A stretch of DNA of 64,000 nucleotides from Lachnospiraceae bacterium. Lineage in GTDB: Bacteria > Bacillota > Clostridia > Lachnospirales > Lachnospiraceae. Below, in pieces: positions 5,821 to 60,083 of the stretch (position 1 is its first letter; each line of letters opens with the position of its first letter). The notes below the pieces were generated by a model. It was not told the DNA's origin, searched no databases, and saw nothing but the letters and a program-made list of their open reading frames with translations. Both the position numbers and the translations under genes were made by a program. The DNA lies in the NCBI GenBank assembly GCA_900752065.1, contig CAADTT010000136.1, positions 34,439-98,438 on the forward strand. Direction: 5' to 3'.

Positions 5821-5854
5821 CTGGAAAAATCAAAGTACACGATAGGAAAGGAGG

Positions 5855-5896
5855 GCTGCCGCAGAACGTAGGGACATTCTGCGGCAGCGCTTTTTA
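5855..5896 (+). terminator. 12-bp GC-rich hairpin plus U-tract (intrinsic terminator or attenuator) located 25 nt upstream of the PPK2 start codon
   Basis: GCTGCCGCAGAA-cgtagggaca-TTCTGCGGCAGC is followed by gcTTTTTA. Confidence 0.7.
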
Positions 5897-5920
5897 TCAG
5901 GCGTTAAAAGGAGGGATAGT

Positions 5921-7405
5921 ATGCTGGAAAAGATTGATCTTTCCAAAAAGCTGGAAAAAAAGGAATTTAAGGAAATCATGGACGCGGAAGCCATCCGTCT
6001 GGGTAAGCTGCAGCGGGAATGCAAGGAATTAAAAATTCCGGTGCTCATTGTTTTTGAAGGTTTCGGTGCAGCAGGAAAAGGAACACTGATCAATCAGTTG
6101 ATCCAGCCGCTGGATCCCAGAGGATTTAAGGTTTTTTCTATCAAGGGGGAATCTGAGGAGGAAAAGATGCGTCCGTTTCTCTGGCGCTTCTGGACGAAAA
6201 CGCCTGAAAATGGACGAATTCATATTTTTGACAGGAGCTGGTACCGCAGGGTCCTGGTGGACCGGTTTGATAAGGTCACGACGGAAAGCCAGCTTGCCTC
6301 GGCGTATCAGGAGATCATCTCCTTTGAAAAGACACTGACAGACGGAGGTGCTGTCATCATTAAGTTTTTCCTGGATATCACAAAGAAGGAGCAGGAAAAG
6401 CGTTTTGGAAAGCTTTTGGACAATAAGGAGACTGCGTGGAGAGTTTCAAAAGGAGATTTAAAGAGAAATAAGCATTTTGAAGAATATAAGATCATGAATG
6501 AGGAAATGCTTCAGAAGACGGATACGGATTTTGCACCGTGGACGATCGTAGAAGCGATGGATCGGGAGTATGCGGCAGTAAAAGTGATCCGGACAGTGGC
6601 GGACCGGCTGGAAGAATATGTGACGAAGAGGAAGGGAAGAAAAGCGGGAAAAGAGTCTGAAAGCGTAAGGCTGGTAAAGCCTGCCTTCCAGTCCTCTATT
6701 TTAAGCAACGCTGATCTGAGCCTTGCCTATACAAAGGAAGAATATAAAGAACGGCTGAAGAATCTTCAGAAACGCCTGTCATTTCTTCACAGTGAGCTGT
6801 ATAGACGGAAAATCCCTGTAGTCCTGGGCTTTGAGGGATGGGATGCAGGAGGCAAGGGAGGCGCCATCAAGCGCCTGACTCAGTGCATGGATCCGAGGGG
6901 ATATGCGGTAAATCCCACAGCAGCTCCCAATGATATTGAAAAGTCCCATCACTATCTCTGGCGTTTCTGGCAGAATATGCCGAAGGATGGCCATGTAGCT
7001 ATTTTTGACAGAACTTGGTATGGAAGGGTGATGGTAGAACGGATCGAAGGCTTCTGCAGTCAGGAGGAATGGATGAGGGCCTATAAAGAGATCAACGATA
7101 TGGAAGAGCATCTGGCGAATAACGGAGCCATTGTCATCAAATTCTGGATGCAGATCGATAAAGATGAGCAGGAGCGAAGATTTAAGGAGCGCATGGAGAC
7201 ACCGGAGAAGCAGTGGAAGATCACCGAGGAGGACTGGCGCAACCGCGAGAAATGGGATGCCTATGAGGAGGCTGTGGACGAGATGCTGATCCGCACATCC
7301 ACCACCTATGCGCCCTGGATCATCGTAGAGGGAAATAACAAATATTATGCCAGGATAAAAGTGCTGGAAACCGTGGTGAAGGCCATCGAGGAAAGGTTGA
7401 AGTAA
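5921..7405 (+). CDS. ppk2: two-domain polyphosphate kinase 2 (class II PPK2; polyphosphate:AMP/ADP phosphotransferase-like)
   Basis: Two tandem PPK2 modules are present, each with a Walker A-like motif (FEGFGAAGKGT and FEGWDAGGKGG) and a WRFW motif. A GGAGGG Shine-Dalgarno precedes the start. Confidence 0.85.
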   Translation: MLEKIDLSKKLEKKEFKEIMDAEAIRLGKLQRECKELKIPVLIVFEGFGAAGKGTLINQLIQPLDPRGFKVFSIKGESEEEKMRPFLWRFWTKTPENGRIHIFDRSWYRRVLVDRFDKVTTESQLASAYQEIISFEKTLTDGGAVIIKFFLDITKKEQEKRFGKLLDNKETAWRVSKGDLKRNKHFEEYKIMNEEMLQKTDTDFAPWTIVEAMDREYAAVKVIRTVADRLEEYVTKRKGRKAGKESESVRLVKPAFQSSILSNADLSLAYTKEEYKERLKNLQKRLSFLHSELYRRKIPVVLGFEGWDAGGKGGAIKRLTQCMDPRGYAVNPTAAPNDIEKSHHYLWRFWQNMPKDGHVAIFDRTWYGRVMVERIEGFCSQEEWMRAYKEINDMEEHLANNGAIVIKFWMQIDKDEQERRFKERMETPEKQWKITEEDWRNREKWDAYEEAVDEMLIRTSTTYAPWIIVEGNNKYYARIKVLETVVKAIEERLK

Positions 7406-7761: not shown

Positions 7762-8742
7762 ATGCTACATATCATTTTGGCAATACTAAAAATAGTGGGA
7801 ATTCTGTTGGCGGTTCTGCTGCTCCTGGTGCTATTGGTCGTCTGTTCGGTGCTTTTTGTACCTTTGCGCTATCGTGTAAGCGCCGCCAAGGATGCGGAAG
7901 GAATCCGGGCGCAGGGAAGGGTGAGCTGGCTGCTGCGTGCCGTATCTGCAACGGTGGAATTGCATGACGGGAAGCCCGGATTGAAAGTGCGGATTCTGTT
8001 CTTTAAAAAAAATTTTTTGCCGGATCAGGGACAGCCGCCGGATGAAAAAAGAAAAAAAAGAAGAAAGAAAGCCCAAAAGAAGCCGCCGGAGAGACAGGAT
8101 AAAGCTGTGAAAACAGAAAGAAAAGTTCCGGAAAAATTACAGAAGGGACAAACGGCAGCAGAGCCTGGGAAGTCTTCCGTACCTCCGGAAATTACGGAAG
8201 AGGATTTCCGGGAATCTACTGAGGAAAATACGAAGGAAGAAAAACCAGATACGAAGGAAGAAGAACCAGAAAAGAGAGGTGGCAAACTTCGGGCGCTTTG
8301 GAACAGGATAAAAGAATTGTGGGAAAAGCTGATGGCGGTTCCGCAGAAGCTCAGGCAGTTCACAGAGCGCGGGAGAGCTGCATTCCAAAAAATCAGCGAC
8401 TGGGTATCCTTTCTCTTTTCTGACATGGTAAAAGCGGTGATCTGCCGTTTTAAACAGCATCTTTTGTATCTGTGGAGGCACCTGAAGCCGGACAGGATAC
8501 GGGGAGAGCTGCGATACGGGTTTGATGATCCGTCTCTGACGGGACAGCTTACCGGACTGCTCTATATACTGCTCCCGGTAGGGTGCTATGAGATCCGCCT
8601 TCAGCCGGATTTTGAAAATACTTTATACGAAGGAGAACTGCATATAAAAGGACACATACGGCTCTGTCATCTGGCAATCGTCGGATGGAAAGTATTTCGG
8701 GATAAGGAGTTTAGAAAAATATTGAAAAAATTTCAAGCATAA
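7762..8742 (+). CDS. DUF2953-like sporulation membrane protein (YtfI-like) with a Lys/Glu-rich low-complexity insert
   Basis: AGGAGTGAG Shine-Dalgarno. An N-terminal TM segment is present (ILAILKIVGILLAVLLLLVLLVV). The gene sits directly upstream of a ytfJ homolog, as in the B. subtilis ytfI-ytfJ pair. The longer six-frame ORF from 7606 is rejected. Confidence 0.7.
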   Translation: MLHIILAILKIVGILLAVLLLLVLLVVCSVLFVPLRYRVSAAKDAEGIRAQGRVSWLLRAVSATVELHDGKPGLKVRILFFKKNFLPDQGQPPDEKRKKRRKKAQKKPPERQDKAVKTERKVPEKLQKGQTAAEPGKSSVPPEITEEDFRESTEENTKEEKPDTKEEEPEKRGGKLRALWNRIKELWEKLMAVPQKLRQFTERGRAAFQKISDWVSFLFSDMVKAVICRFKQHLLYLWRHLKPDRIRGELRYGFDDPSLTGQLTGLLYILLPVGCYEIRLQPDFENTLYEGELHIKGHIRLCHLAIVGWKVFRDKEFRKILKKFQA

Positions 8743-8757
8743 GGAGGAATCAGAAAC

Positions 8758-9159
8758 ATGGCATCAGAAAATAATGTTCAGACAACCGTTGATTCTCTGT
8801 TTAAGGGGATGAACAGCTTTATTACCACAAAGACCGTGGTGGGAGACGCGATTCATATCGGCGATACGATCATTCTTCCGTTGGTGGATGTATCCTTTGG
8901 AATCGGAGCAGCGGCAAAGGCAGAGGATAAGAAAAACGGCGGAGGCGGCGGAATGGGCGGAAAAATGACTCCCAGCGCAATTCTGGTGATCCAAAATGGA
9001 ACAACGAAGCTTGTGAATGTAAAGAATCAGGATGGACTCACGAAGATTCTGGATATGGTTCCCGATTTCGTGAACCGTTTCGCAGGCAGCGGGAAAAGTT
9101 ACTCGGAGGAGGAGACAAAGGCGGCGGCAGAGGCTGTAGACGATATTTTTTCAGAGTAA
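8758..9159 (+). CDS. ytfJ: sporulation protein YtfJ / GerW family
   Basis: Family-typical sequence includes KTVVGDAIHIGDTIILPL, GIGAAAKAE and a GGGGGMGG glycine tract. GGAGG Shine-Dalgarno. Confidence 0.8.
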   Translation: MASENNVQTTVDSLFKGMNSFITTKTVVGDAIHIGDTIILPLVDVSFGIGAAAKAEDKKNGGGGGMGGKMTPSAILVIQNGTTKLVNVKNQDGLTKILDMVPDFVNRFAGSGKSYSEEETKAAAEAVDDIFSE

Positions 9160-9216
9160 TGTGGTAGGACAAAGGGAAGCTGCATATATTGAAGAAAAGA
9201 TGTTTCAGGAGCGGAC

Positions 9217-9354
9217 ATGAAACGCATTGCAGGGTATACGCTTTTCTGGATGGGAATCGGAATGCTTCTGGCAGTCATCATCCCGTATAAGTTTTTTTCT
9301 ATTTTAATTTGTGCCGTAATATTGCTAATTGGATATAATCTGTTTTGTTCATAA
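9217..9354 (+). CDS. small hydrophobic membrane peptide (45 aa)
   Basis: MKRIAGYTLFWMGIGMLLAVIIPYKFFSILICAVILLIGYNLFCS is followed by a clean intrinsic terminator. It falls below the ORF-track length cut-off. Confidence 0.4.
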   Translation: MKRIAGYTLFWMGIGMLLAVIIPYKFFSILICAVILLIGYNLFCS

Positions 9355-9372
9355 AAGGCAAAACCGGGGATA

Positions 9373-9407
9373 AGAGACAGGTGAAGATTTATCTGTCTCT
9401 TTTTATT
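9373..9407 (+). terminator. intrinsic terminator
   Basis: AGAGACAG-gtgaagatttat-CTGTCTCT followed by TTTTATT. Confidence 0.7.
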
Positions 9408-9483
9408 GAAAGTAGGTTATATCTTCTTGTCCCAGGCAGCGCTGAACGAATACGATGCCTATGTTGAGGCGGAGGAGCAGCTC

Positions 9484-9828
9484 ATGCTGGCGAAGGTATT
9501 CAAAGATTTTCCAGCGGCATTGCCTGTGATCTATGACAGAGCCTTGAAAGCAGAAGAAATCAACTTTGATGCATGGCATGGCCTGATCAATTTCTACAGC
9601 CAGGATAAAGCAAAAACGGAAAATGACTGGTATGCACTGGCGGAAAGGATTGCTGATACCCTGAAATATTATCCGCTGCCGATGTACGATCTGCTGAGGA
9701 TGATCGAGCCGCATCTGACATCAAAAGAATTTAAGGATCAGTATGCGTCACTTCTCGATACCTCTTTAAAAGCGGCGCCGAAGGCAGCGAAGCAGATCGC
9801 AAATTATCTGCTCAGCCTGCAAAAATAA
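9484..9828 (+). CDS. hypothetical protein (114 aa from an internal ATG with a strong Shine-Dalgarno; the six-frame ORF starts at a TTG at 9406)
   Basis: GGAGGAG lies 6 nt upstream of the ATG at 9484. The amino-acid composition is protein-like. The ORF is bracketed by hairpin terminators on both sides. Confidence 0.45.
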   Translation: MLAKVFKDFPAALPVIYDRALKAEEINFDAWHGLINFYSQDKAKTENDWYALAERIADTLKYYPLPMYDLLRMIEPHLTSKEFKDQYASLLDTSLKAAPKAAKQIANYLLSLQK

Positions 9829-45362: not shown

Positions 45363-45953
45363 ATGACAGAACGCAGAGCAGTGATCGAGAGAAATACGAA
45401 AGAAACACAGATACGCCTGACGCTTAATCTGGACGGAACGGGAAAGTGCCGGGTAGATTCCGGAATCCCATTTTTTGACCATATGCTGGAGGGCTTTGCA
45501 AGACATGGACTTTTTGACCTGGAAGCGGAAATTCATGGAGACACCCAGATAGACTCCCATCATACGATCGAAGATACAGGTATCGTACTGGGAGAGGCAA
45601 TTCGAAAAGCAGTGGGTGATAAGGCAGGCATCCGGCGCTACGGCAGCGCGATCCTGCCTATGGATGAGTCCCTGATCCTCTGTGCCGTGGATTTATCCGG
45701 ACGGCCTTATCTTTCCTTCGACTGTGATTACACGGTAGAGAGGATCGGCGCTCTGGATACAGAGATGATTCATGACTTTTTTTATGCTGTTTCCTACGGG
45801 GCAGCTATGAACCTGCATATCAAAAAGATTTCCGGGTTCAATAACCACCATCTCGCCGAATGCACGTTTAAGGCATTTGCAAAAGCACTGGATGCCGCCG
45901 TCATGTATGATGAGCGTATCTGTGGCGTATTATCAACGAAAGGGACCTTATGA
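45363..45953 (+). CDS. hisB: imidazoleglycerol-phosphate dehydratase
   Basis: RNTKETQI...D/H metal motifs ([15 protein letters not shown]). GAGGTG Shine-Dalgarno. Confidence 0.9.
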
Positions 45954-47245
45954 TTATGAAGACGAAGAAACTGGCATCATATATTTTTATCAGAAATGGG
46001 AAAGCAGTCAAAGACTTTTCCGACGATACGCTGTTCGAGGGCGGAGATGTGCTGGAACTGGCACAGTATTACAGCAACAACGGCGCAGACGAGCTGATCA
46101 TTTTCGATCTCTCCGACGACGATGCTTCCCACGAGGAATCTCTGCTGCTAATCAAAGAGATGTCCCGTCTGATCGATATCCCTATGGCGGGCGGCGGAAA
46201 TGTAAAGCGTATGGAGGATATCAAGAAGCTGATTTACGCAGGATGCCGGAAGGCGTTCCTGAATTTTTCCAAACCGGGAAATATAGGGCTGCTGGAGGAA
46301 GTATCCAAACGATTCGGAAAGGAGAAGATCGCTGTCTGTGCGGACAGCATCGCAGAGCTGAGCTCCAACAGGGGGCTGATCGAGGAATATGCGGGGGAGG
46401 TTCTGTTTCTGGCAGACGAGGTGCATGCATCCGAAGCCTGCAAAGCAGCAAATGTTCCGGTGATGCCCGTTGTCACACACTTTGACGTGGACGGCATCTT
46501 AGAACTTCTGCGTATCGAAAATGTTTCCGGTGTCTGTGCGAAAGCACTTTCTGAAAAAGACAGTGATCTTATGGGAATGAAGCTTCAGGCAAAGGAGCAG
46601 GGGATTCCGGTGAATACCTTTGAGAGCAGTATGGACTGGCCGGAGTTCAAGACAAATGAGGACGGTCTGCTTCCTGTAGTCGTACAGGACTATAAAACTC
46701 TGGAGGTCCTGATGGTGGCTTATATGAACCGCGAGGCCTATGAGACGACCATCCGGACAGGAAAAATGACCTACTGGAGCCGCAGCCGGAAGGAACTCTG
46801 GGTTAAGGGTCTGACCTCCGGACATTTCCAGTATGTGAGGGAGCTTCTCATCGACTGCGACAATGATACGATTCTGGCGAAGGTGCTTCAGGTGGGTGCC
46901 GCCTGTCACACGGGAAACAGAAGCTGCTTCTACCGCAGCATGGTGAAAAAGGACTATGACGAGACGAATCCTATGAAGGTATTTGAGGATGTTTTCTCCG
47001 TGATCCTGGACAGAAAAGAACACCCGAAGGAGGGTTCCTATACCAACTACCTGTTTGACAAGGGTATTGACAAGATTTTAAAGAAGGTGGGCGAGGAGGC
47101 GACGGAAATCGTCATCGCCGCCAAGAATCCGAACCCGGAAGAGATCAAATACGAAATCTCGGATTTCCTCTATCATGTCATGGTGCTGATGGCAGAAAGA
47201 GGTGTGACCTGGGAGGATATCACAAAAGAGCTTGCACAGAGATAA
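45950..47245 (+). CDS. hisIE: fusion protein: N-terminal HisA/HisF-like (beta/alpha)8 barrel domain + phosphoribosyl-AMP cyclohydrolase (HisI) + phosphoribosyl-ATP pyrophosphatase (HisE)
   Basis: The C-terminal half has HisI ([11 protein letters not shown]) and HisE ([24 protein letters not shown]) signatures. The N-terminal 230 aa resemble the HisA/HisF fold, with a [11 protein letters not shown] phosphate-binding motif. Confidence 0.75.
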
Positions 47246-47599: not shown

Positions 47600-49015
47600 A
47601 TGAAACAGAAGATTAGAAAAAGGGGCATAAGGATATTCCTTTTGCTTTGCTTTTTGATGGCGGCATCCGTCGGGATGTCCGGAAACAGAGCACAGGCGGC
47701 TCCGGTGAAAGGCTGGGTAACGGAGGGAAATGCCCGCTATTATTACCGGGAGGGTGAGAAAGTCCTCGGTTTACAGAAGATCGGAAAATACCAATATTAT
47801 TTTAATCTGAAGACAGGAAAAATGATACGAAACAAATGGAAGCTGATAAACAACAAGTATTATTTTTTCCTTTCGAATGGCAGAATGGCTGTCAGGCAGT
47901 GGATCAGAGGAAACTATTACGTCAATTCCAAAGGCGTCCGCGTGAGAAACCAATGGGTTGGAAAGAAGTTTCTGGGTGAAGACGGAAAATGGATCCGGAA
48001 CTTTAAAGGCGGCTGGCAGCAGATTGACGGTAAGTGGTACTATTATACAGCAAAGGGAAAGAAAAAGACCGGATGGATCACTTATAAGGGAAACCGCTAT
48101 TATCTGGATGCAAATGGCGTCCGTCTGACGAAAAAGCAGACGATTAATGAGAAGACCTATTTTTTTACAAAGAAGGGCGTAATGAAAAACAGCAGTTGGG
48201 TGAAAAGCGGCGGCTGGTATTATTATGCCAATGAGAGCGGCGTCTTGAATACAAAAGAACGCATCAATGCGAAAGCGCTCAGCAGCGCTACCATTATTGA
48301 ATATAACAGCGGCAGTCTGAAGGTCCGAATGCAGAAATTTTCAAATTACGGGACGAATTTCTGGACGGCACAGGTAAAGATCGCCAGTGTCAGCCAGATG
48401 AAGGCGGCTCTTTCCTATGGTACATATGGCGGAACCAGACAGACCACTTCCGATGCTGTCAAAAGTAATCATGCTATCATCGGCATCAACGGCAGCGCTT
48501 TTTCCTATGAGACGGGAAAACCGGGGTTTGATGCAGTGATGCTGAAAAACGGAAAGATCTATAATAAGGCGCTGGGAACCAGCTACTCCCTGATGGCAAT
48601 CGCAAATGACGGCACTATGTTCAGCCCGCCCCAGGGACTGAGCGCGGCACAGTTGAAAAAGAGCGGTGTGAGAGATACGTTTAACTTCGGCCCGATCCTT
48701 TTAAAAGAAGGGAAGCCGGCATCCCTTTATGACCAGGGATACCCAGAGGTTTATGCCAGCCCGGATATGACGGGAAGATACCCGCGTTCCGCAGTGGGAA
48801 TGGTTCGTCCGGGGGAATATGTTCTTCTGGTATCAAATGCGCCGGGGCTAACGCTGAAACAGATGCGGACGGTTTTCCGGCAGTATGGCTGCGTATACGC
48901 CTATAATCTGGACGGCGGCGGCTCCGCCACCATGTCCTACAAAGGCTATGTACTGAACAGCCCTACTGATGGGGTGGAACGTCCCTGCGGTGATTTTCTT
49001 TTATTTACAGAATAG
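47600..49015 (+). CDS. secreted cell-wall-binding-repeat protein with C-terminal phosphodiester glycosidase (NAGPA/DUF2233-like) domain
   Basis: Signal peptide present. Repeated GW..NGKWYYY choline/cell-wall-binding-like modules occur. C-terminal ...AYNLDGGGSATM motif. Confidence 0.75.
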   Translation: MKQKIRKRGIRIFLLLCFLMAASVGMSGNRAQAAPVKGWVTEGNARYYYREGEKVLGLQKIGKYQYYFNLKTGKMIRNKWKLINNKYYFFLSNGRMAVRQWIRGNYYVNSKGVRVRNQWVGKKFLGEDGKWIRNFKGGWQQIDGKWYYYTAKGKKKTGWITYKGNRYYLDANGVRLTKKQTINEKTYFFTKKGVMKNSSWVKSGGWYYYANESGVLNTKERINAKALSSATIIEYNSGSLKVRMQKFSNYGTNFWTAQVKIASVSQMKAALSYGTYGGTRQTTSDAVKSNHAIIGINGSAFSYETGKPGFDAVMLKNGKIYNKALGTSYSLMAIANDGTMFSPPQGLSAAQLKKSGVRDTFNFGPILLKEGKPASLYDQGYPEVYASPDMTGRYPRSAVGMVRPGEYVLLVSNAPGLTLKQMRTVFRQYGCVYAYNLDGGGSATMSYKGYVLNSPTDGVERPCGDFLLFTE

Positions 49016-49017
49016 TG

Positions 49018-49045
49018 CAAAACAGCCGGGTTTTCCCGGCTGTTT
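49018..49045. terminator. bidirectional intrinsic terminator between convergent genes
   Basis: AAAACAGCCGGG-tttt-CCCGGCTGTTTT. Confidence 0.85.
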
Positions 49046-49050
49046 TGCTG

Positions 49051-49911
49051 TTATAGGAAGCCGTTACAGGAGGTAATGGCGTCTGCGGGACAGATCTTTT
49101 TGCACTGGCCGCAGCGGATACACTCCAGATGGTTGGCATTCTGTACAGGGTCCACCTGCATCTTGCAAACTCTGGCGCAGGCCCCGCAATTGGTGCATTT
49201 CTCCTGATCTACCCGGTAGCGGAATACGGAAATCGGATTGAATACAGAGTAGATGGCTCCCAGTGGACATATGTATTTGCAGAAGGGGCGGTAGATGATG
49301 ATGGACAGAAAAATTGTCGCAAACAGCAGTAGATTTTTCCATGCATACAGCCAGCCGATGGTTCCCCGCAGTGCTTCGTTCAGCAGCACGAGGGGGATTC
49401 CGCCTTCCAGCGTTCCCACCGGGCAGATCAGTTTGCAGAAATAAGGTGATCCCTGACCGATCACATCCACCAGAAACAGAGGCAGAAGGATCACAAACAC
49501 AAGGAGGATCACATATTTCAGTTTTCGAAGCAGTTTATCTCCCCGAAAGGTTTTAATTTTTTTCGGGAAGGGGATCTTGTGCAGCAGATCCTGAATCAGC
49601 CCGAAGGGGCAGAGCCAGCCGCAGACAAATCTTCCGATCAAAGCCCCCACAAACATGAGAAATCCTGCTGCATAAAAGGCAAATTTAAAATTCCAGCTTC
49701 CGATCACCGCCTGCATTGCCCCGATGGGACAGGCGCCTGCCGCGCCCGGGCATGAGTAGCAGTTCAAACCCGGAACGCAGAGATTTTTCAGTTTTCCTTT
49801 ATAAATCTTTCCCTGAACGAAACCAAGCAGATAGCTGTTCGTCAGGAGCGCCCATAAAGCCTGTATCCGGTGGCGGGGCCATTCACTTGTTTTTTTCTTT
49901 CTTTTATCCAA
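49051..49911 (-). CDS. polytopic membrane 4Fe-4S ferredoxin-type protein (NapH/MauN-like)
   Basis: C-terminal 2x[4Fe-4S] motifs ([11 protein letters not shown]...[12 protein letters not shown]) plus N-terminal CxxC pairs. Multiple TM helices. Confidence 0.8.
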
Positions 49912-50053
49912 TTCCGATACACTCCAGACATATTTTTGTAGCTTTTTCCAGTACCACCGCCGCTTCTCCGCGGCTGATGCCGTAGACCATCAGGGCAAGC
50001 CCCAGAGCCGCCACACCGATTCCGCACCAGCGGGAGAACTGCTCCCGGCGCAT
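49904..50053 (-). CDS. CD1871A-like small CXXC-motif membrane protein (49 aa)
   Basis: [25 protein letters not shown]...[10 protein letters not shown]. Start overlaps the upstream stop by 1 nt (TGATG); the 3' end overlaps the 4Fe-4S gene by 8 nt. Confidence 0.6.
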
Positions 50054-50814
50054 CAGTTGGCTCCTTTCAGGTTGGAAAGTTCTTTCTCGACAACGGACTT
50101 CCAATCCTCAAAGCTGCGGCTGCCTACGTAGGTTTCTCCTACGATATTACCGTCTTTATCCACAAAGAAGGTTTCCGGAACAGAATCAATGTTATTCAGC
50201 CTTCCGTTCATCTTTGTTTCATCCGGCAGCAGGAAGGGGTAGGAAGCACCCGTTTTTTCTGCGATCAGCTTTGCTTTTTCCACAGCCTCCTCATTGATAT
50301 TTCCGGTTCCGTCGTCGGCATCCAGGACTACGCCGATGACATTGACACCTTTTTCGGCCATCTCATCTTTGAGCTTTTGCAGCTCCGGAATCTCGCCGAC
50401 ACAGGGGGTGCACCAGGTGGTGAACAGATTTATCATGGTCAGGTCATAATCCTTAAACATTTCTTCCGTATATTCTGTTTCATGAATATCCCTGATTTTA
50501 AAACTGCCGAGATTTTTGACAGGAGCCGGATCTACACCGGGATCGATGATACTTTCAGAAAAAGCGGAATTCTGATCAAAAGGCGCTGGTTCCGTAAGCT
50601 CGGTCGTGATCTGCTTCACCTCATCGGTCAGCTCCTCATCTGAGAGTTCCATTTCTTCGGCTGCCTCTGTGGAATTTTCCGGTGCAGCCGTAGTTTCCTT
50701 TACTGTTTCTTTTACAGTTTCCTTCGTCTGCTCCTTTGAGCATCCCGTAAAAATTGTCATACTTAAAGTGCCTGCCAGAAAGAGGGCACAGATTCTATAA
50801 ATTCGTTTTTTCAT
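50053..50814 (-). CDS. TlpA-family thioredoxin-like lipoprotein (thiol-disulfide oxidoreductase)
   Basis: Lipobox IFTGC. A Glu/Thr-rich linker is followed by the WCTPC active site. Confidence 0.85.
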
Positions 50815-51277
50815 GTTGATCGTATCTCCTTTCTTTTGATGGTGTCATCATATCATACCTGACATAAAATCTTTGTTAAGAAAACATTATTTCTTCAATT
50901 TTTGTAAAAAAAGATGAAAAAACCCTGTGTGTCTTCATCACAGAAGGACTGCGGATGAACGGCTATGAGGCAGATCCCTGTCATGACGGTGCATGGGAGC
51001 TTCCAAGCGGAATATTCTTCTCATATTTTATACGATGCATAAAAATGATATAACGTGAATATAATAATAAATTTGGTTTTTTTCTATAATGAACAGTTGC
51101 TTATGTGGGAAAATTATGTTATGTTTTCAATGGAGGATTCGGTCTATACAATGAAATGACCGGACATGTGGGGAAAGCCGTCAGGCGAGTGACCATGAAT
51201 GCATATGAGATTGACAGTATTCAGGTTATTTACATCTGTGAAAAAGATTGTTAACGTTACATATAAGGAGGGATTTT

Positions 51278-52351
51278 ATGGCAAAAAATGATTTATTCAG
51301 GGTATCATTAATTGGAGGTTACAATAAGACAGATGTCGAAGAATATGTGAAAAACATGGAAAATGAAATTGAGTCTGTTAAAGTAATGTGTAAGAAAGAA
51401 AAAAATGACCTCATACGGCGTATAGACAACAATGAGGAAGCCTCGGTACTTCAAAAGGAGCTTTTGGAAAAGGATCTTCAGGAAGCGCAGGAGAAATTGA
51501 AGGTGGAAACGCAGGAGCTTCAGGAGACGAAGGAGGAGCTGAGGATAAGAACGCAGGAACTTCAGGAGACGAAGGAGGAGCTGAGGATAAGAACGCAGGA
51601 GCTTCAGAAGGCGGAGAAGGAACTGAGTGCAAGAACGCAGGAACTTCAGGAGCTTCAGGAGGAACTGAAGGCAAGAACGCAGGAGCTTCAGGAGGAACTG
51701 AGGGTAAGGACGCAGGAACTTCAGGAGGAGCTGAGAGGAAGGACGCAGGAACTTCAGGAGGAGCAGGAGCAGAAGACACAGGAATCTTTGGATGCGGATC
51801 ATCTTTGGGAAGCAGGGACAGATCAGGCTGCCGACACTACAGAGACGGATGCGCTTCTGCTTGAAAACAAGATGCTGAAACAGGAGCTCCAGGAGAAATC
51901 AGAAGAGCTTCTGATCCTGCAGCAGCAGTATAAACAACTGAAAACGGAAAATCAGGACGAAGGCTTTCTGGATCGGAATACGATTGCTGAAATCATGAGG
52001 GATGCAAGAGAAAATGCAAAGCTGATCAAAGAAGAAACGATGAAAGAGCGGGATAGAATGCTGGAGGCCGCACGGACTGAGGCAGAAAAATTAAAATCAG
52101 ATCTGCTGCTTCAGATGAACAGTGAGCTTGAAGATAAGGGAATCCAACTGATCGCTGCAAAGTATAAGATCATTCAATATATCAAGGAAGTAAAGTTCGC
52201 AGAAGAAGGGCTGTACAATATCCATTCAAGGATGAATAACCTGGTGGAGTCTATGACTGCCCGTCTGGATAATTACTGGGATGGAGAAAAGTACAAGATA
52301 CTGGAGGACACTCTTCGCGAGAGTGAAAATGTACATAAGGAAGGAAAGTAG
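51278..52351 (+). CDS. DivIVA-domain protein with long tandem-repeat coiled coil
   Basis: AAGGAGGG Shine-Dalgarno. The N-terminal DivIVA motif is FRVSLIGGYNKTDVEEYV. About 7 copies of the ELRxRTQELQE heptad-based repeats follow. Confidence 0.8.
   Translation: MAKNDLFRVSLIGGYNKTDVEEYVKNMENEIESVKVMCKKEKNDLIRRIDNNEEASVLQKELLEKDLQEAQEKLKVETQELQETKEELRIRTQELQETKEELRIRTQELQKAEKELSARTQELQELQEELKARTQELQEELRVRTQELQEELRGRTQELQEEQEQKTQESLDADHLWEAGTDQAADTTETDALLLENKMLKQELQEKSEELLILQQQYKQLKTENQDEGFLDRNTIAEIMRDARENAKLIKEETMKERDRMLEAARTEAEKLKSDLLLQMNSELEDKGIQLIAAKYKIIQYIKEVKFAEEGLYNIHSRMNNLVESMTARLDNYWDGEKYKILEDTLRESENVHKEGK
51500..51775 (+). repeat. in-frame tandem 42/33-nt repeats (RTQELQ units) inside DivIVA-domain gene
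   Basis: gagacgaaggaggagctgaggataagaacgcaggaacttcag is duplicated exactly, then degenerates. Confidence 0.85.
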
Positions 52352-52356: not shown

Positions 52357-53511
52357 ATGGGACCGGAAAAGAAGCAAACCATCATGATTGTAGACGATTC
52401 AGAAATGAACCGGGCAATCCTGACAGAAATGCTGGCAGAAGAATACGGCATATTAGAGGCTGAAGACGGTCTTGAGGCGATAGAAATATTAAGTCATTCC
52501 TGGCATGAGGTTTCTCTGGTTCTTCTGGACCTCATGATGCCTAAGATGGATGGCTTTGCCGTATTAGAGTATATGAAAAAAATGCAATGGCTGGAAGAGT
52601 TTCCTGTTCTTATAATTTCCGCGGAAAGCGACTCTTCCCAGGTACAGCGTGCATATGAGATTGGTGCGACGGATTTTATCATACGCCCCTTTAACGCACT
52701 GATCGTTCACAAGCGTGTGAATAATACAATCCTTTTATATGAAAAGCAGAAGAGGCTGATGGGCATGTTGGCCGCGCAGATTTATGAAAAGGAGAAACGC
52801 AGCAGTATGCTGATCAATATTTTAAGCCATATTGTAGAATTTCGAAACGGAGAGAGCGGGCCTCATGTCATTCATGTGCGGGTGCTTACAGAGCTGCTGC
52901 TGGATGCACTGTGTAAACGGGACAGCCGCTATCAATTTACGGCTGCGGAGATTTCCATGATCGGAATGGCGTCTTCTCTTCATGATATCGGAAAAATTTC
53001 AATTGCCGAGGGAATCCTTAATAAGCCCGGAAGATTGACAGAAGAGGAGCGGGAAATCATGCAGACCCATTCCATGATCGGTGCGGAGATACTGGAGGAG
53101 CTGCCCGTCTACCAGAAAGAGCCGCTGGTAAAAATCGCCTGCCAGATCTGCCGCTGGCATCATGAGCGGTACGATGGAAATGGATACCCGGATGGACTGA
53201 AGGGAGATGATATTCCAATCTATGCCCAGATCGTGTCGATAGCGGATGTCTATGACGCCCTCACCAGTGAACGGGTGTATAAAAAGGCGTTTTCCCATGA
53301 AAAGGCTATAGAGATGATCTTAAACGGAGAGTGTGGTTCCTTTAACCCGCTGGTGCTGAAATGTCTGAATGACATCGAAAAAGAAATTCCCCAGCGGCTG
53401 AACAGCGAAGTAGAAAGGCATGACCGCAGAGAACTTAAAGATATCGTTCTGGAAAGCCTGGAGAATATGAATCTTTCCGTTTCCGAACAATATCTGGCTT
53501 TGCCGGAGTGA
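52357..53511 (+). CDS. response regulator with HD-GYP domain (c-di-GMP phosphodiesterase, RpfG-like)
   Basis: A receiver domain (IMIVDDSEMNR...LLDLMMPKMDG) is followed by HDIGK...HHERYDGNGYP. Confidence 0.85.
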   Translation: MGPEKKQTIMIVDDSEMNRAILTEMLAEEYGILEAEDGLEAIEILSHSWHEVSLVLLDLMMPKMDGFAVLEYMKKMQWLEEFPVLIISAESDSSQVQRAYEIGATDFIIRPFNALIVHKRVNNTILLYEKQKRLMGMLAAQIYEKEKRSSMLINILSHIVEFRNGESGPHVIHVRVLTELLLDALCKRDSRYQFTAAEISMIGMASSLHDIGKISIAEGILNKPGRLTEEEREIMQTHSMIGAEILEELPVYQKEPLVKIACQICRWHHERYDGNGYPDGLKGDDIPIYAQIVSIADVYDALTSERVYKKAFSHEKAIEMILNGECGSFNPLVLKCLNDIEKEIPQRLNSEVERHDRRELKDIVLESLENMNLSVSEQYLALPE

Positions 53512-53563
53512 TGTTTGCTGTATAATGTTCAAATTAAAATACAAAGGAAGAGGATGTGAAATT

Positions 53564-53926
53564 ATGACATTAAAGGAATGTTACGCCGTTCTCGGCGGAG
53601 GTTATGAAGATGTATTGGGAAGGCTCGGAAGCGAGCGCCTGGTTAAAAGGTTTGTATTAAAGTTTTTAGATGATCCAAGCTTTAGAATGTTGTCAGAAGC
53701 TCTGGAGAGTGAAAATTATGAAGAGGCTTTCCGGGCTTCCCATACGATAAAAGGAATATGCCAGAATCTGAGTTTTATGCATCTGCTGGAATCCAGCAGC
53801 AGATTGACGGAAGAGCTGCGTCCAGGCACGGCACCGGCATCTGATGAATTCTTCGCACAAGTGACGGCGGATTATAGCGCCGCTGCGGAAGCGATTCGTC
53901 AGTACCGTGATTCAGCCACAGCGTGA
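53564..53926 (+). CDS. stand-alone Hpt phosphotransfer protein
   Basis: HTIKG phosphorylatable His motif. AAAGGAAGAGGA Shine-Dalgarno. The longer ORF from 53525 is rejected. Confidence 0.8.
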   Translation: MTLKECYAVLGGGYEDVLGRLGSERLVKRFVLKFLDDPSFRMLSEALESENYEEAFRASHTIKGICQNLSFMHLLESSSRLTEELRPGTAPASDEFFAQVTADYSAAAEAIRQYRDSATA

Positions 53927-53983
53927 CAGATATCAAAATCATTCCTGAATTTTGACGCATAGAATGCGGAGTGGGAGGTAGAA

Positions 53984-56551
53984 ATGAAAAACAGGATGAC
54001 ACGTGTTCTTACATGCACGATTATTGGGATATCTGTTCTGTGTATTTTTGTATTTATGATTATCACGGTCCGGATGAACCAGATGAGCCATGATACCATC
54101 GGACAGGTGGGGAATCTCTATATGTCAGGAACCAGCCAGAGGATCAAGACTCATTTTAATACGATTATTACCACCAGATTTACTTATGTAAAGGCTGTTT
54201 CGGAATATACACCTCCGGAGGAATACGGCAACAATGAAGAGGTCATGCGGGAGCGGCTGAGATACAGCGCCGAGGTACGGGATTTTGAATATCTGGCTTT
54301 AGGATCTGAAGAGCGGACCGAGGATGTTCTGTACGGAAGATCTTTACAGATTCTGGAAGAGGATGCTTTCTTTTCTGCATTGGACGCAGGAGAAGAAAAG
54401 GTGACCGTCGGTATTGACAAGAACGGGGAGCGTGTTCTTCTTCTGGGTATTCCTGCCGTTTATCCTATGAAAAACGGCGGAATGTCCAGTTCTCTGGTAG
54501 CGGGGATTTCCATTGAAAACATTAAGAGTATCCTTGCACTGGATGAGGAGGATGCACTGGTATTTTCCCATGTGGTTTTAAAAGACGGAACCTTCGTGAT
54601 CCGAAGCGGAGATGCCGTCAGGGATAATTATTTTACACGTATCCGGGAAATGTTTGAGCCTCTGGATGGAAAAGATGCGGAGCAGTATGTCAATGAGCTT
54701 GCTGGCGCAATGGAACGGGAGGAAGATTTTTCTACGGAATTTAAGGTAGACGGAGAGCGCAGATATCTTTATTGCAGCGCGCTGCCTTACAGTGATTGGT
54801 ATCTGATTACCATTATGCCTTATGGAGAACTGGATAAGGCTGTTTCCGAGCTTTCAAGCGGAATGCTCTCTAACGCCATAGTGTACTGCGTACTGCTTGT
54901 AGCGGCTATGCTGCTCGTCTTCGGCTGGTATATCCAACTGATAAAAAAACAGATGAAGGAGCTTGAGGAAGCACGCCTGGCAGCGGAGACAGCTAACAGG
55001 GCAAAGAGCGAATTTTTATCGAACATGAGCCATGACATCCGCACACCGATGAATGCCATCGTGGGAATGACAGCTATCGCAGCGGCAAATCTGGACAAGC
55101 CGGAAAAGGTGCAGGAATGCCTGAAAAAGGTTACGATATCAGGGAAGCATCTTTTGGGGCTTATCAATGATGTGCTGGATATGTCAAAAATAGAGAGCGG
55201 GAAAATTACGATGAATATAAGCCGGGTATCCCTGAAGGAAGCCATCGACAGTATCGTTGCGATTATTCAGCCCCAGGCGAAGTCAAAGCATCAGCAGTTT
55301 GATGTATTTATCCATGATATTTCTGCAGAGTATGTGCTGTGTGACGGTGTGCGGTTGAATCAGATCTTGATCAACCTGCTTTCAAATGCCGTAAAATTTA
55401 CTCCGGATGGCGGAAAAATAGAAATGGCCCTGTGGGAAAAGCCATCCCCTCTGGGCAGCAGGTACGTTCGTGTCTATCTGCGGGTAAAAGACACGGGCAT
55501 CGGTATGTCTGAGGAATTTCAAAAGAAAATTTTCGAGGCGTTTGCCCGCGAGGATATTGCCAGGGTCAACCGGACAGAGGGAACCGGGCTGGGAATGGCG
55601 ATCACGAAGTATATCGTAGATGCCATGAAGGGAACGTTGACTATAGACAGTGAATCCGGAAAGGGAACGGAGTGCAATCTTCACCTTGATTTTGAACGCC
55701 TGCCGGATAAAGAGATCAATATGGAGCTGCCCGCCTGGAACATGCTGCTGGTGGATGACGACAGACAGCTTTGTGAAAGTACAGTGGCTTCTCTGAAAGA
55801 TATGGGGATCCGGGCAGAATGGGCGCTGGATGGAGAGATGGCCCTGAAGATGATCGAAGACCGTCATAAAAAACAGGAGGATTATCAGATTATCCTTCTG
55901 GACTGGAAGCTGCCCGGCATGGATGGCATTGAAACAGCAGAGAAAATCCGCAGCCGTTTATGCAAAGATATCCCCATCCTTCTGATTTCTGCTTACGACT
56001 GCACCGAGATCGAAGAACATGCAAGGGAAGCAGGGATCAACGGCTTTATTGGAAAGCCACTGTTTAAGTCTACGCTTTTCTATGGATTAAGGGAACATAT
56101 GCAGAAAATTGAGAAACCCTTGGAGTCTGAGAAACATCCAGAAGATTTTGAAGGAAAACGCATTCTGCTGGCAGAGGACAACGAACTGAACTGGGAAGTG
56201 GCAGAAGCGCTTCTGGAGGATCTGGGACTTGAACTGGAGTGGGCGGAAAACGGACAGATCTGCGCCGAAAAATTTGCACAGTCCCCTGTTGGATTTTATG
56301 ACGCAGTGCTTATGGATCTTAGGATGCCGAAGATGAACGGCTATGAGGCGGCGGATGCGATCCGTGCCTCGGGACGGCCTGACGCGGATATTCCTATCCT
56401 CGCTATGACGGCTGATGTTTTTTTGGAGGATATTGAGAGGTGCCACGAACACGGCATGAATGGCCATGTGCCGAAGCCCATTCAGGTAGAAGAGGTTGCA
56501 AGGCTTCTGGAAGGCTTCTGGAAAGAAAGGCAGGCGAATAGCTGTGAATGA
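53984..56551 (+). CDS. hybrid sensor histidine kinase (2 TM + periplasmic sensor, HisKA, HATPase, two receiver domains)
   Basis: H-box [11 protein letters not shown]; GTGLGMAI; two REC modules (VDDD...DWKLPGMDG and AEDN...DLRMPKMNG). Confidence 0.85.
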
Positions 56552-59500
56552 AAAAGAATATGTACGGATTTTAGATTCTCTTCCAGTGACAGGCGTTTAT
56601 GTCATAACGGAGGACAATCATGAAATTCAATATTATAACAAGCGGGTCAGGGAGGTTGCCCCGGAGGTACGCCGGGGTGACATCTGCCATGAATTGTGGA
56701 AAGGCGTCTGTGCCAACTGTCCCCTGAAAAGTATAGGAGATAAAAAGCAGGCACGCACGATCAATTATGATAATCCGTTTGGAGAGGTAGTTGAAATCGT
56801 GGCATCACGGATTTTATGGGAAGATCGTATCCCTGCCTTTTTAATTACCGTATCCCCTCACGAAGAAGTGGCTGACGTTACTTACTACCGGGTGCTGCGG
56901 GTCAATCTGACGAAAAACACTTTTCATGTGGTACATGGCACCAGAGATGGATTTCGGGTGATGGAGGAGGAACAGAGCCCCCTGTCATCCTGGTTGCAAA
57001 GCCTGCTGCGGAAGGGATATATTCATGAAGAGGATGAACAGTGCTTTCTGGAATTTATCCAGCTTGACAATCTTCGCGGCAGACTGAAAGACAGACCCGG
57101 AGGAAACCGATGCATTTACAGATACAGGAGCGGAAATGAATTCCGCTGGCATATCATGGAGATTGTTGCAGATTTTAATTACTGTGATGAAGAACAGACT
57201 GCCATGATCTATGTAAAGGATGTCCACGACGCTTTCAAAGAAAGTGTCAGAAGAGAAGAAATCAATATCAAAGGCCAGGAAATTATTGATGCTCTGGGTG
57301 AAATGAATCTTGGAATCTATATTGTCGATCTTCAGACTGGAATCGCGAATGTGATAAAGACAACGGAAGTCGCTAAAAAGGCCATCCATTCAGATAATTT
57401 CCTGTGGGATGATATTGTGGAGGCTTTGGGAAGAACCTGTACAGCCGTGGAATTTCAGGATGAATTTAAGGCAAAATATTCCTGTGAGGCCATGCGCCAG
57501 GCATGGAAAAACGGTGAGAAGAAAAAGATGTTCATTTACCGGGCCAGGATCGGAGAGAACTGGCGCTACGTTTCTGCAACCGGATATTTTAAGAAAAATA
57601 GAAGCGGCAGGGGCTATGCCATCCTTACTTTTCAGGATGTGGATGACCGTACCCGTGAAAATATGCTGCGTATCCAGAACGACAGGCGCATGGCTGCCCT
57701 GATCAAATCCAGATACGATGTCATTAATACAGTGGATCTGGAGTCGGGCCACTGTGAGCGTGTTCATATACGGGATGGCATTTTGCAGGAGCGGCTGGAG
57801 GGAGACTACAGTTGCTATATTCAAAAAGCGCTGGATATGCACATAGCTGAGGAGGATCGGGAGAATTTCAACAATGCGTTTCTGCTGGAAAATCTCAGAA
57901 AACGTGCAGAAGATGTGGAGGATTATAAGGAAGAAATTTTTCAATACCGTTTCCGTGAGGGTGCTGTCCGGTGGGTCGAGGATCGTGTGATGTACATTCG
58001 CCAGGGAAGCCAGATAACAGTGAATATTCTGGGGCGCGACATCACAAAGAATAAGGAGGCAGAGGAAGCAGCGAAGAAGGCATTTAATGAGAAGGTATCT
58101 ATCATCAATACCCTGAGCGGTATGTTTTTCGCCTCTTACTACGTGGATCTGGAACAGGACTGCTTCCGCTCTGTGACCCAGGAGGGGAAGGCTGAACAGA
58201 TGCTGGGAGAAGCACAGAACTACAGCAATGGAATCCGGGCCTATGCAGAGCATTTCATCCATCCGGATGACCGTGCAGACTTTATCCTTTACATGGACCG
58301 TCAGAATCTTTTAAATGCGCTTAGCCCGGAGAATCCTTACATCGCCTTTGAATACCGGAAGATGCCTGAAAATGGACAGAAAAGAGCATGGATACGAGCT
58401 ACCGCGGCGCTGGCTGAGACATCTCCTGACGGACGGCCGAGACGCATCGTATATGTGGCGCAGGATATCACAGAGAGCAAGCTGCGGGAAGAGCAGGAAC
58501 AGCTTGCCCTTGAAGCGGCATGTGAAGCGGCAAACCGTGCCAATGCTGCAAAGAGTGAATTCCTGTCCCGTATGAGCCACGATATCCGGACGCCGTTGAA
58601 CGCGATCATCGGCATGACAGCTATTGCCGGAAGATATCTGGATAATCAGGAGCGCGTAGCCGACTGTCTGGGAAAAATCGTTACTTCCAGCCGCCATCTT
58701 CTGTCTCTGATCAATGAAGTTCTGGATATGAGCAAGATCGAATCAGGAAAGATGGAACTGACAGAAGAAGAGGTCGATCTGTCGGAGCTGGTGAGCAGTC
58801 TGGTAACGATGATGCGGCCGTCTATAGAAGAGAAAAACCATCAATTTGAGGTACATATTTCCAACCTGAAAACAGAGCATGTTATCGGTGACTCGATACG
58901 TTTGCAGCAGGTGTTTATAAATATCCTGGGAAATGCCATCAAATATACGCCCCCCGGAGGAAAAATAGAAATGGAAATCCGGGAAAAGCCATCTTCCTCC
59001 TACGGTTATAGCTGTTTTGAATTTGTATTTCGTGATACGGGGATCGGCATGAGCCGGGAGTTCCAGAAGAAACTCTTTGAGCCGTTTACCCGTGCGGAGG
59101 ACTCCAGAATCAGCACCACCGAGGGAACCGGGCTGGGCATGACCATTGCCCGGAATATCGCCCGCATGATGGACGGAAGTATTGAGGTGGAAAGTGAACC
59201 GGGCAGGGGAACACAGTTTACCGTTACTCTTATGCTTAAAAAATATGACGCAGATGAACCGGACTTAAAGCAGCTTATGGATCTTCCTGTACTGGTGGCA
59301 GATGATGATGAGACAGCCGGGCAGATGGCGTGCCTGATGCTGGACAATATTGGCATGAAGAGCGAATACGTCACAAATGGGGCCGATGCCGTGGAGCGTG
59401 TCTTTATCCATCATCAGTCCGGTGATGATTACTTTGCGGTAATTCTGGACTGGAAAATGCCGGATATGGATGGAATCGAGACGGCAAGGGCAATCCGGGC

Positions 59501-60083
59501 GCAAGTTGGACCGGATGTGCCGATCATTATTCTTTCTGCCTACGACTGGAGCAGTGTAGAAGAGGAAGCACGGGATGCAGGCGTCAATGGGTTTATCGCA
59601 AAGCCGCTGTTCCGTTCACGCCTTGTCTATCTGTTCAGCCAGTTTACTGACAGGGAGAAATTCTCTGAGGAGTCGGATAAAGACAGAAAAACCGAGACTT
59701 CTTTGGCAGAAAAGAGGATTCTTCTGGTGGAGGATAATGCGCTGAACCGTGAAATTGCGGAAGAGATGATCTATCAGCTCGGAGCCAGCGTGGAAACTGC
59801 GAAAAACGGGAAGGAAGCAGTAGAGAAATTCGAGCAGATGGAAGAAGGATATTATGATATGATTGTTATGGATATCCAAATGCCTGTCATGAATGGTTAT
59901 GAGGCTTCACGGACGATCCGGAGTCTGCCGCGTCCGGATGCGGCAGAGATTCCGATTGTTGCCATGACAGCCAATGCCTTTGCAGAAGATATGATCCAGA
60001 GCCGGAATGCCGGGATGAATGAGCATCTCACGAAACCTCTTGGCATCGAAGATCTGGAAAAATGCATACGGCGCTGGACTTAA
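56496..60083 (+). CDS. cytoplasmic multi-PAS hybrid sensor histidine kinase with N-terminal Cys cluster and two receiver domains
   Basis: C-x8-C-x2-C cluster ([12 protein letters not shown]); PAS-like repeats; H-box [11 protein letters not shown]; GTGLGMTI; two REC domains. Start is uncertain: an in-frame GTG at 56544 overlaps the upstream stop. Confidence 0.8.

Follow-up and report, generated by a model that had tools for sequence, protein, structure and literature searches.

A conserved operon of a thioredoxin lipoprotein, a CXXC mini-protein and a NapH-like membrane protein: a candidate route for reductant across the membrane of anaerobic bacteria

We examined three minus-strand genes at positions 50814-49051 of a 64,000-nucleotide stretch of DNA from a Lachnospiraceae bacterium (assembly GCA_900752065.1, contig CAADTT010000136.1; this whole stretch is referred to here as the window), which encode, in this order, a thioredoxin lipoprotein, a CXXC mini-protein and a NapH-like iron-sulfur (Fe-S) membrane protein. 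The trio is a real, strongly conserved and widespread three-component envelope redox module, very unlikely to be a chance arrangement, and it joins two known kinds of system, NapH-like conduits and extracytoplasmic thioredoxin pathways, in a new form. On balance we lean, if only modestly, towards the view that the module passes reducing equivalents outward, from the cytoplasm to a thioredoxin tethered at the external surface of the membrane; such a route would probably dispense with the usual CcdA/DsbD proteins. A transmembrane relay of this kind had been proposed in a sequence-only reading of the same DNA, and that interpretation is partly supported by our results. The three genes, with their coordinates in the window, are the following.

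50053..50814, minus strand: thioredoxin-fold lipoprotein, 253 amino acids (Pfam and lipobox)
49904..50053, minus strand: single-helix mini-protein, 49 amino acids (NF040920 match)
49051..49911, minus strand: NapH-like membrane Fe-S protein, 286 amino acids, TTG start (Pfam, NCBIfam and alignments)

A single operon encoding a membrane redox module is the best explanation of the trio. The thioredoxin and mini-protein genes overlap by 1 nucleotide (TGATG) and the mini-protein and NapH-like genes by 8 nucleotides; both overlaps, and the three elements themselves, lie exactly where the sequence-only reading had placed them. The TTG start of the NapH-like gene is embedded in the codons for the IGIG-stop end of the mini-protein, and a GGAG within the L-E-C codons of the same gene, 10 nucleotides 5' of that TTG, is the likely Shine-Dalgarno sequence. 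At other loci, an upstream TTG gives the NapH-like protein a start reading 'MELDKK...' and an overlap of 14 nucleotides.

The conserved C-terminal pattern of the mini-protein, when run against 185,579 species genomes, returned at least 567 confirmed species-level matches. The neighborhoods described here are those of the best 80 of these at least 567 loci, whose hosts include Lachnospiraceae, Oscillospiraceae, Peptoniphilaceae, Clostridium, Peptoclostridium, Treponema and other spirochaetes, and Atopobium. In essentially all 80 loci an open reading frame (ORF) for a NapH-like protein lay directly 3' of the mini ORF, with a usual overlap of 8 or 14 nucleotides, the exceptions being one truncated contig and one apparent frameshift. 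In the reverse direction, all three of the NapH-like proteins followed (66-73% identity) had a mini ORF upstream with an 8-nucleotide overlap. Additionally, an exported Redoxin-family gene was adjacent and co-oriented in 65 of the 81 loci over which thioredoxin adjacency was tallied, with the gene order thioredoxin-mini-NapH-like in 51 and mini-NapH-like-thioredoxin in 14. The trio, which had been read from a single stretch of DNA as one unit, is conserved as such, with the mini/NapH-like pair present in essentially all of the loci and the thioredoxin adjacent in approximately 80%.

The thioredoxins encoded upstream of the pair have WC[STGN]PC or FCGPC active sites, some partners carrying the canonical WCGPC, whereas those encoded downstream have GCxPC, SCPPC or TCPPC. 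This difference in active-site type between the two gene orders suggests that selection, rather than one inherited arrangement, has kept the genes together. Most of the partner thioredoxins have a lipobox, those of Treponema have ordinary signal peptides, and nearly all have one or the other. Adjacency of a thioredoxin goes far beyond chance: it recurs at 65 of the 81 loci and in different phyla, both gene orders and different thioredoxin lineages are represented, and stop and start codons overlap.

Some of the sampled loci had features of their own. Partner thioredoxins of 360-445 amino acids, found at L014, L021, L030, L035, L043, L051, L069 and L076, have one C-terminal Redoxin domain preceded by a region of about 200 residues that gave no Pfam match, and hence no clue to a substrate; this region might hold a substrate-binding domain or a second, degenerate thioredoxin-like domain. 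At L076, from Clostridium sp. Marseille-P2415, the thioredoxin-mini pair is present twice (5824-7098 and 8313-9587), as copies of 1275 nucleotides that are 100% identical and approximately 1.2 kb apart, and a single NapH-like gene follows the later copy. A genuine tandem duplication or insertion could account for this arrangement, as could an error of assembly. At L012 (8158-13235, Ruminococcus/Blautia-like), a mini/NapH-like pair lacking a thioredoxin is followed by NuoE/NuoF-like and hydrogenase/formate-dehydrogenase-type Fe-S genes, families that were judged by eye, in a context that may point to an electron source in the cytoplasm.

The features within the three genes on which the argument turns are listed here, with TM1 to TM4 denoting the successive transmembrane helices of the NapH-like protein.

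50401..50415, minus strand: WCTPC active-site codons of the lipoprotein (sequence reading)
49919..49930, minus strand: C-L-E-C codons of the mini-protein (sequence reading)
49726..49779, minus strand: TM1-TM2 loop of the NapH-like protein with C45, C51, C54 and C61, C.PG.NCY.CP.A...CP.G (alignment; predicted outer face)
49606..49623, minus strand: inner CX3CP motif 1, C97/C101, common with NapH (alignment; predicted cytoplasmic face)
49420..49437, minus strand: TM3-TM4 loop, FCxxxCPxG, C159/C163 (alignment; predicted outer face)
49264..49281, minus strand: inner CX3CP motif 2, C211/C215, common with NapH (alignment; predicted cytoplasmic face)
49072..49215, minus strand: ferredoxin domain, two CxxCxxCxxxC(P) motifs, C239/242/245/249 and C264/267/270/274 (Pfam Fer4, Fer4_7 and Fer4_9)

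The NapH-like protein has four transmembrane helices, four C-x3-C-P-x-G-type motifs and a C-terminal 2x[4Fe-4S] domain, and it reproduces the architecture of NapH in that CX3CP motifs follow TM2 and TM4 and two [4Fe-4S] motifs stand at the C-terminus. The same NapH-type module has been described previously (PMC5928378). PF12801 (Fer4_5) matched in two stretches with 67.5 bits, above its threshold of 22, and Fer4 matched twice, while the scores against TIGR02163 (NapH/MauN; 75.1 bits, cut-off 213) and NF007013 (64.3 bits, cut-off 234) were both below cut-off, and identity to NapH of E. coli K-12 was 26%. The sequence-only reading had called this protein a polyferredoxin; its polytopic nature, two 4Fe-4S motifs and extra cysteine pairs are all present, but the label is a loose one for a protein with one 2x[4Fe-4S] domain, and by the model matches and alignments 'NapH-like' is the more precise description.

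Comparison of cysteines separates this subfamily from NapH itself. In an alignment of 25 sequences (the window protein and 24 diverse partners, 45-72% identity), all 18 cysteines were invariant or nearly so. E. coli NapH keeps C97/C101, C211/C215 and all eight ferredoxin cysteines in the alignment and lacks the six subfamily cysteines (C45, C51, C54, C61, C159 and C163), with an 11-residue gap at the TM1-TM2 loop. The outer TM3-TM4 motif copies the inner CX3CP motifs, with hhalign probabilities of 96% against inner motif 2 and 91% against inner motif 1, and the two halves consisting of TM2 plus its motif and TM4 plus its motif are an internal duplication (hhalign probability 92.6%). Matches in the PDB were confined to residues 215-282 and to ferredoxin-type domains, and this sequence search found no solved relative of the NapH-like membrane module.

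The mean number of lysine plus arginine residues per segment was 5.3 for the N-terminus, 3.0 for loop 1, 7.7 for loop 2, 2.1 for loop 3 and 13.9 for the C-terminus. This distribution fits the topology of NapH, in which both termini are inside, and from it we predict that the six extra cysteines point out of the cytoplasm, like the thioredoxin, and that the Fe-S domain is cytoplasmic. For NapH, the four-helix topology with both termini inside is reported to have been established experimentally, in work of Brondijk et al. 2004.

Three metagenome proteins of 350-375 amino acids (P0018, P0137 and P0138) were considered as natural mini-NapH fusions and rejected as internal duplications or chimeras. 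In these proteins a repeated TM3-TM4 block is joined exactly at CKYICP, and some join halves of different lineages; they are most likely chimeric assemblies across a conserved motif.

The mini-protein consists of a basic N-terminus, a transmembrane helix at residues 10-26 and a CLEC motif at residues 42-45 that is followed by four residues, giving the C-terminus ...ICLECIGIG. Although the longest ORF at this position is 66 amino acids long and starts at a TTG, the 49-amino-acid form starting at an ATG agrees with the homologues. It matched NF040920 (CD1871A family CXXC motif-containing protein) with 64.5 bits against a cut-off of 32 (E 5.7e-18, model positions 3-38 of 38), and it has the size of approximately 50 amino acids, the one helix and the CXXC at the extreme C-terminus that characterize this family, in agreement with the earlier description of a CD1871A-like peptide of 49 amino acids with one transmembrane helix and a CLEC end. 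An exhaustive profile search yielded 2690 mini-protein representatives at 50% clustering, all of them 40-105 amino acids long with the motif at the extreme C-terminus, and the family consensus is G.xRGExxVVxxKAxxIC(L/M)ECIGIG, in which the tail pattern RGE..VV..KA..IC(L/M)ECIGIG is invariant. Among 150 representatives, the motif was CLEC in 104 and CMEC in 41, and it was followed by four residues in 138. The extreme conservation of ...CLECIGIG may partly reflect dual coding or translational coupling, since the start codon and the Shine-Dalgarno sequence of the NapH-like gene sit in those codons. The N-terminal flank of the helix is more positive than the C-terminal tail (net charge +2.3 vs +0.4), which predicts an orientation with the N-terminus inside and the C-terminus outside, and thus a CXXC on the outer face.

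Of the four contigs that retained the region 5' of a NapH-like gene, three had a mini ORF that gene predictors had left uncalled, and the CD1871A family is thus under-annotated in public data. The uncalled genes, which encode 48-52 amino acids, are given below.

L087:2853-3008: uncalled mini-gene
L088:2862-3008: uncalled mini-gene
L090:2850-3008: uncalled mini-gene

Two apparent matches in the literature were set aside, one to CD1871, which was an unrelated ATP-binding cassette (ABC) permease under the numbering of another strain, and one to 'naphthalenivorans', a coincidence of names.

The thioredoxin lipoprotein has a single N-terminal hydrophobic segment, and its lipoprotein signal peptide ends in the lipobox FTG|C25. 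An acidic, Glu/Thr-rich linker at about residues 26-100, which holds a 12-nucleotide tandem repeat encoding KETV, leads to a TlpA/ResA-type Redoxin domain at about residues 104-243. These features bear out the description of a TlpA-like lipoprotein with WCTPC and a Glu/Thr-rich linker in the sequence-only reading. Pfam scores were 48.6 bits for Redoxin and 51.5 bits for AhpC-TSA; with a Redoxin/AhpC-TSA fold, a WCxPC-type site and an export signal, the protein is of the TlpA/ResA/DsbE type. Scores against the named groups in NCBIfam were below the cut-offs throughout, at 52.3 bits for ResA (cut-off 170), 47.6 for DsbE (123), 40.7 for StoA (210) and 36.6 for TlpA (230), and by these scores the lipoprotein has a TlpA-like fold and stands outside the named ResA, DsbE, StoA and TlpA orthologue groups. 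The closest solved structures in a PDB search were also of the TlpA/ResA type (3kcm, 3or5 and the ResA structure 4nmu).

According to the sequence-only reading, the window holds no electron importer of the DsbD/CcdA type. This held true in a phmmer search with the beta domain of E. coli DsbD, which found no DsbD-beta/CcdA homologue in the window or in 84 loci (9334 ORFs), and the other polytopic proteins of the window are limited to PstC/PstA and a transporter of the Na/Pi type.

To our knowledge, every characterized line that supplies reductant to extracytoplasmic thioredoxins, which repair and mature surface proteins, runs via the DsbD/CcdA superfamily and a cytoplasmic thioredoxin. In the mechanism that we propose for the trio, electrons would enter at the cytoplasmic C-terminal 2x[4Fe-4S] domain, supplied by a soluble carrier of low potential that is probably ferredoxin or flavodoxin; the genes near the trio include none for a dehydrogenase partner. 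The electrons would next travel from the two inner-face CX3CP motifs through the four-helix bundle to the six outer-loop cysteines. The mini-protein, presumably held at a fixed ratio to the NapH-like protein via translational coupling, would span the membrane once with its C-terminal CXXC outside and act as a small subunit or a shuttle. The WCxPC thioredoxin lipoprotein would then be reduced and would keep extracytoplasmic targets reduced. Since the NapH-like partner contains Fe-S clusters, the input would probably come from one-electron carriers and not from cytoplasmic thioredoxin. Inferred in this scheme are the topology, which donor is used, which way the electrons flow and what the mini-protein does, as well as the choice between thiol-disulfide and Fe-S-ligand chemistry at the cysteines, the latter a step like that of ferredoxin:thioredoxin reductase (FTR) or Hdr.

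The predicted topology agrees with this mechanism, in that the lipobox, the positive-inside charge pattern and the NapH alignment put the thioredoxin outside and the Fe-S domain inside, as the sequence-only reading required of a relay. The relay gains further support from the six invariant cysteines of the predicted outer loops and from the lack of a CcdA/DsbD gene beside any of the 84 loci searched. An outward, reducing flow is suggested by the TlpA/ResA-type fold, by the reducing-type active sites (WCGPC, FCGPC and WC[ST]PC) and by thermodynamics. Ferredoxin-level electrons readily reduce disulfides, and the reverse reaction is uphill. With regard to the CX3CP motifs, NosR holds only about 8 Fe, an iron content from which it has been suggested that the motifs are not cluster ligands; their function was left open, with disulfide chemistry favored (PMC5928378).

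Several points weigh against this outward relay. The mini/NapH-like pair occurs with no adjacent thioredoxin in 16 of the 81 loci, from which it follows that the pair may serve other acceptors, and clustering of the 80 neighborhoods gave no conserved substrate gene. A ccdA gene may be present elsewhere in the host genome. The support for the topology consists of charge bias and homology, and AlphaFold2 models of the NapH-like protein reached mean predicted local distance difference test (pLDDT) values of 43.8 and 46.3 with homologue alignments of 82% and 70% mean column identity, respectively, values too low for the models to be used. In CcoG, the cysteine motifs bind copper instead of relaying thiols (PMC7558416). 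Finally, the searchable literature holds no mention of CD1871A or the gene trio, and the family has been named by NCBI with no function attached, so that the statement in the sequence-only reading that the function of the module is unassigned still stands.

The trio resembles NapH, NosR and RdhC (PceC) in its four-helix module with two CX3CP motifs on the cytoplasmic face, and NapH and NosR also in the C-terminal cytoplasmic 2x[4Fe-4S] domain. It has been proposed that NapH-like proteins connect redox partners outside the cytoplasm with the membrane or the cytoplasm by carrying electrons (PMC8238504, PMC5928378). Unlike NapH, NosR and RdhC, the trio has six extra outer-loop cysteines, an obligate CXXC mini-protein and a thioredoxin as its acceptor instead of an Fe-S or flavin protein, and no NapG, nitrate reductase, N2O reductase, dehalogenase or mau cluster was found beside the trio or as a recurrent neighbor in the 80 loci. 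In the survey of Méheust et al. 2021, NapH-like modular transmembrane carriers always occurred with flavinylated flavin mononucleotide (FMN)-binding domains and ApbE (PMC8238504). FMN_bind gave no match in the three proteins, and neither ApbE nor FMN_bind was seen among the immediate neighbors or the recurrent clusters, in which neighbor genes were grouped by BLAST and no dedicated ApbE model was used.

As in the CcdA/DsbD systems (ResA, StoA and TlpA), a surface thioredoxin of the TlpA/ResA type is encoded beside the membrane protein that is presumed to supply its reductant. The pneumococcal CcdA-Etrx-MsrAB2 system, in which CcdA reportedly supplies a surface thioredoxin lipoprotein, is the functional analogue. 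Unlike CcdA and DsbD, the NapH-like membrane partner carries Fe-S clusters and is unrelated to them, with no phmmer match. The use of electrons at the level of [4Fe-4S] clusters for the reduction of a disulfide would be shared with FTR and HdrB, a mechanistic analogy only, as there is no sequence relationship and as those enzymes are soluble, whereas the chemistry of the trio would cross the membrane. The mini-protein also has a counterpart of sorts in DUF4266, a small protein with a C-terminal CXC that occurs in DsbD-DUF3570-thioredoxin-like clusters and has been proposed to undergo redox cycling (PMC8238504). Both are tiny proteins with a C-terminal cysteine motif whose genes accompany those of a thioredoxin-like protein and an electron carrier of the membrane, but the mini-protein is of another family, has CXXC rather than CXC, is membrane-anchored rather than secreted, and has a partner other than DsbD.

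Taken together, these comparisons raise a broader idea, which we put forward tentatively as something short of probable, that the module represents a third class of conduit, based on Fe-S centers, by which reductant crosses the membrane to extracytoplasmic thiol-disulfide oxidoreductases. Such a class would be unrelated to DsbD/CcdA and would deliver ferredoxin-level electrons to an outer dithiol by way of four CX3CP-type motifs, a pair on each face, with the CXXC mini-protein as an obligate subunit. If this is true, the module would in effect be a membrane-spanning ferredoxin:thioredoxin reductase.

Among the other explanations, the one that survives best, and which we nevertheless regard as unlikely, is that the trio works in the manner of NapH proper, with electrons flowing outward from a membrane (mena)quinol to the outer cysteines and the thioredoxin, and with the Fe-S domain serving regulation or maturation instead of admitting electrons. 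The membrane part of the trio shares homology with the quinol dehydrogenase subunit NapH, which has a cytoplasmic 2x[4Fe-4S] domain as well, although its proposed donor is quinol (PMC5928378, PMC8238504). The near invariance of the ferredoxin-domain cysteines across the family argues against this explanation, as does the potential of menaquinol, which at about -75 mV reduces CGPC/CxPC thioredoxins (about -200 to -270 mV) only poorly. Moreover, most of the hosts are Clostridia with a fermentative metabolism, a group in which many members are generally held to lack quinones.

A second alternative, to which we assign little probability, reverses the flow, such that the module would be a substitute for DsbB/VKOR in which the lipoprotein oxidizes exported cysteines and the NapH-like protein disposes of the electrons in the cytoplasm or the membrane. 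Anatomy alone leaves the direction of flow unfixed, and many such anaerobes are, as a matter of general knowledge, devoid of known DsbB/VKOR. However, the partners are Redoxin/TlpA/ResA-like domains with WCGPC, FCGPC or WCxPC and not the CPHC of DsbA, and [4Fe-4S] clusters of low potential are thermodynamically unfavorable acceptors for electrons from thiols.

Reduction or handling of a metal, copper or similar, is an explanation that we consider improbable as well. In this case the CX3CP-type motifs and the CXXC of the mini-protein would bind the metal, the Fe-S domain would reduce it, and the TlpA/Sco-like lipoprotein would service the cysteines of metal sites. The model for this is CcoG (FixG/RdxA; E. 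coli YccM is of the same kind), a membrane protein that shares with the NapH-like protein the Fer4_5 superfamily, cysteine motifs and two [4Fe-4S] clusters, and which, with two Cu sites, reduces Cu(II) as a cupric reductase whose physiological donor is unknown (PMC7558416). CXXC is moreover well known as a ligand motif for Cu(I)/Hg, one partner thioredoxin had a weak match to SCO1/SenC (E 1.2e-4), and regulators of the BlaI/CopY family adjoin a few loci. Unlike CcoG, the NapH-like protein lacks an Ig-like domain and a cco/cop context and has a thioredoxin and a mini-protein as partners, and it scored only 21.8 bits against the CcoG model (TIGR02745, cut-off 316.7), a match to the ferredoxin motif only. 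In addition, CopA/CopZ or other metal-resistance genes were not recurrent in the 80 neighborhoods, the BlaI/CopY-family regulators pair with BlaR-type sensors rather than with copper systems, and the hosts are generally understood to have few extracytoplasmic cuproenzymes. That the adjacency is functionally meaningless, with the thioredoxin served by a CcdA elsewhere and the mini/NapH-like pair doing an unrelated job, is hardly credible, the 16 loci with no adjacent thioredoxin notwithstanding, given that the share of Redoxin genes in a genome is well below 1%.

Were a ferredoxin-linked outward relay to be true, the upkeep of envelope thiols would draw directly on the pool of low-potential electrons in fermentative anaerobes. 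The carriers include dominant human gut Lachnospiraceae and Oscillospiraceae, oral treponemes and Atopobium, and the relay could bear on the tolerance of these anaerobes to oxygen and oxidants. It would also explain what the CX3CP motifs, long without an assigned function, do in NapH, NosR and RdhC. The role of these motifs has been open for approximately 20 years, and the module offers a tractable handle on it, because in this NapH-like subfamily the CX3CP motif is duplicated onto the predicted outer face and paired with thiol-redox partners.

The local signals around the trio include one candidate promoter and a terminator.

50852..50879, minus strand: promoter-like site, TTAACA-16 nt-TATGAT (consensus scan, 10/12 matches, pattern only)
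49017..49048, minus strand: hairpin terminator, 14-bp stem with 9 GC pairs, 3' of the NapH-like gene

The promoter-like site lies approximately 40 nucleotides 5' of the thioredoxin start codon and is followed by the ribosome-binding site AAAGGAGA (sequence reading). The hairpin at 49048-49017 is common to the trio and the convergent gene at 47600-49015, as a bidirectional terminator. An Rfam search of positions 48000-52000 found no RNA element. The sequence-only reading had described the trio as divergently transcribed, and the upstream gene at 51248-52351 does sit on the plus strand, but the description is true in a trivial sense only.

The immediate neighbors of the trio in the window are an NAGPA/choline-binding protein, a coiled-coil protein and two-component signaling proteins. 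Among the 80 sampled loci, OmpR-type response regulators (30 loci) were the only other recurrent neighbors, and a BlaI/BlaR-like pair was seen in a few. The convergent gene at 47600-49015 (plus strand) encodes a secreted protein in which choline-binding cell-wall repeats are combined with an NAGPA phosphodiester glycosidase domain. The gene at 51248-52351 (plus strand) encodes a highly charged coiled-coil protein of 367 amino acids that gave no Pfam match, and tandem repeats of 33/42 nucleotides at 51471-51784 encode its RTQELQE(E/T)KEEL units, the long antisense ORFs there being artefacts of the repeats. The signaling cluster at 52357-60083 (plus strand), which comprises a response regulator with an HD domain of the HD-GYP type, an Hpt protein, a protein of 1195 amino acids and a hybrid histidine kinase that carries two receiver domains, is not conserved beside the module in other genomes. 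Further upstream in window coordinates, the gene at 45950-47245 (plus strand) encodes a protein of 431 amino acids in which a partial His_biosynth domain (HisA/HisF-type) is joined to PRA-CH and PRA-PH (HisI-HisE), an unusual three-part fusion that ends a run of histidine biosynthesis genes.

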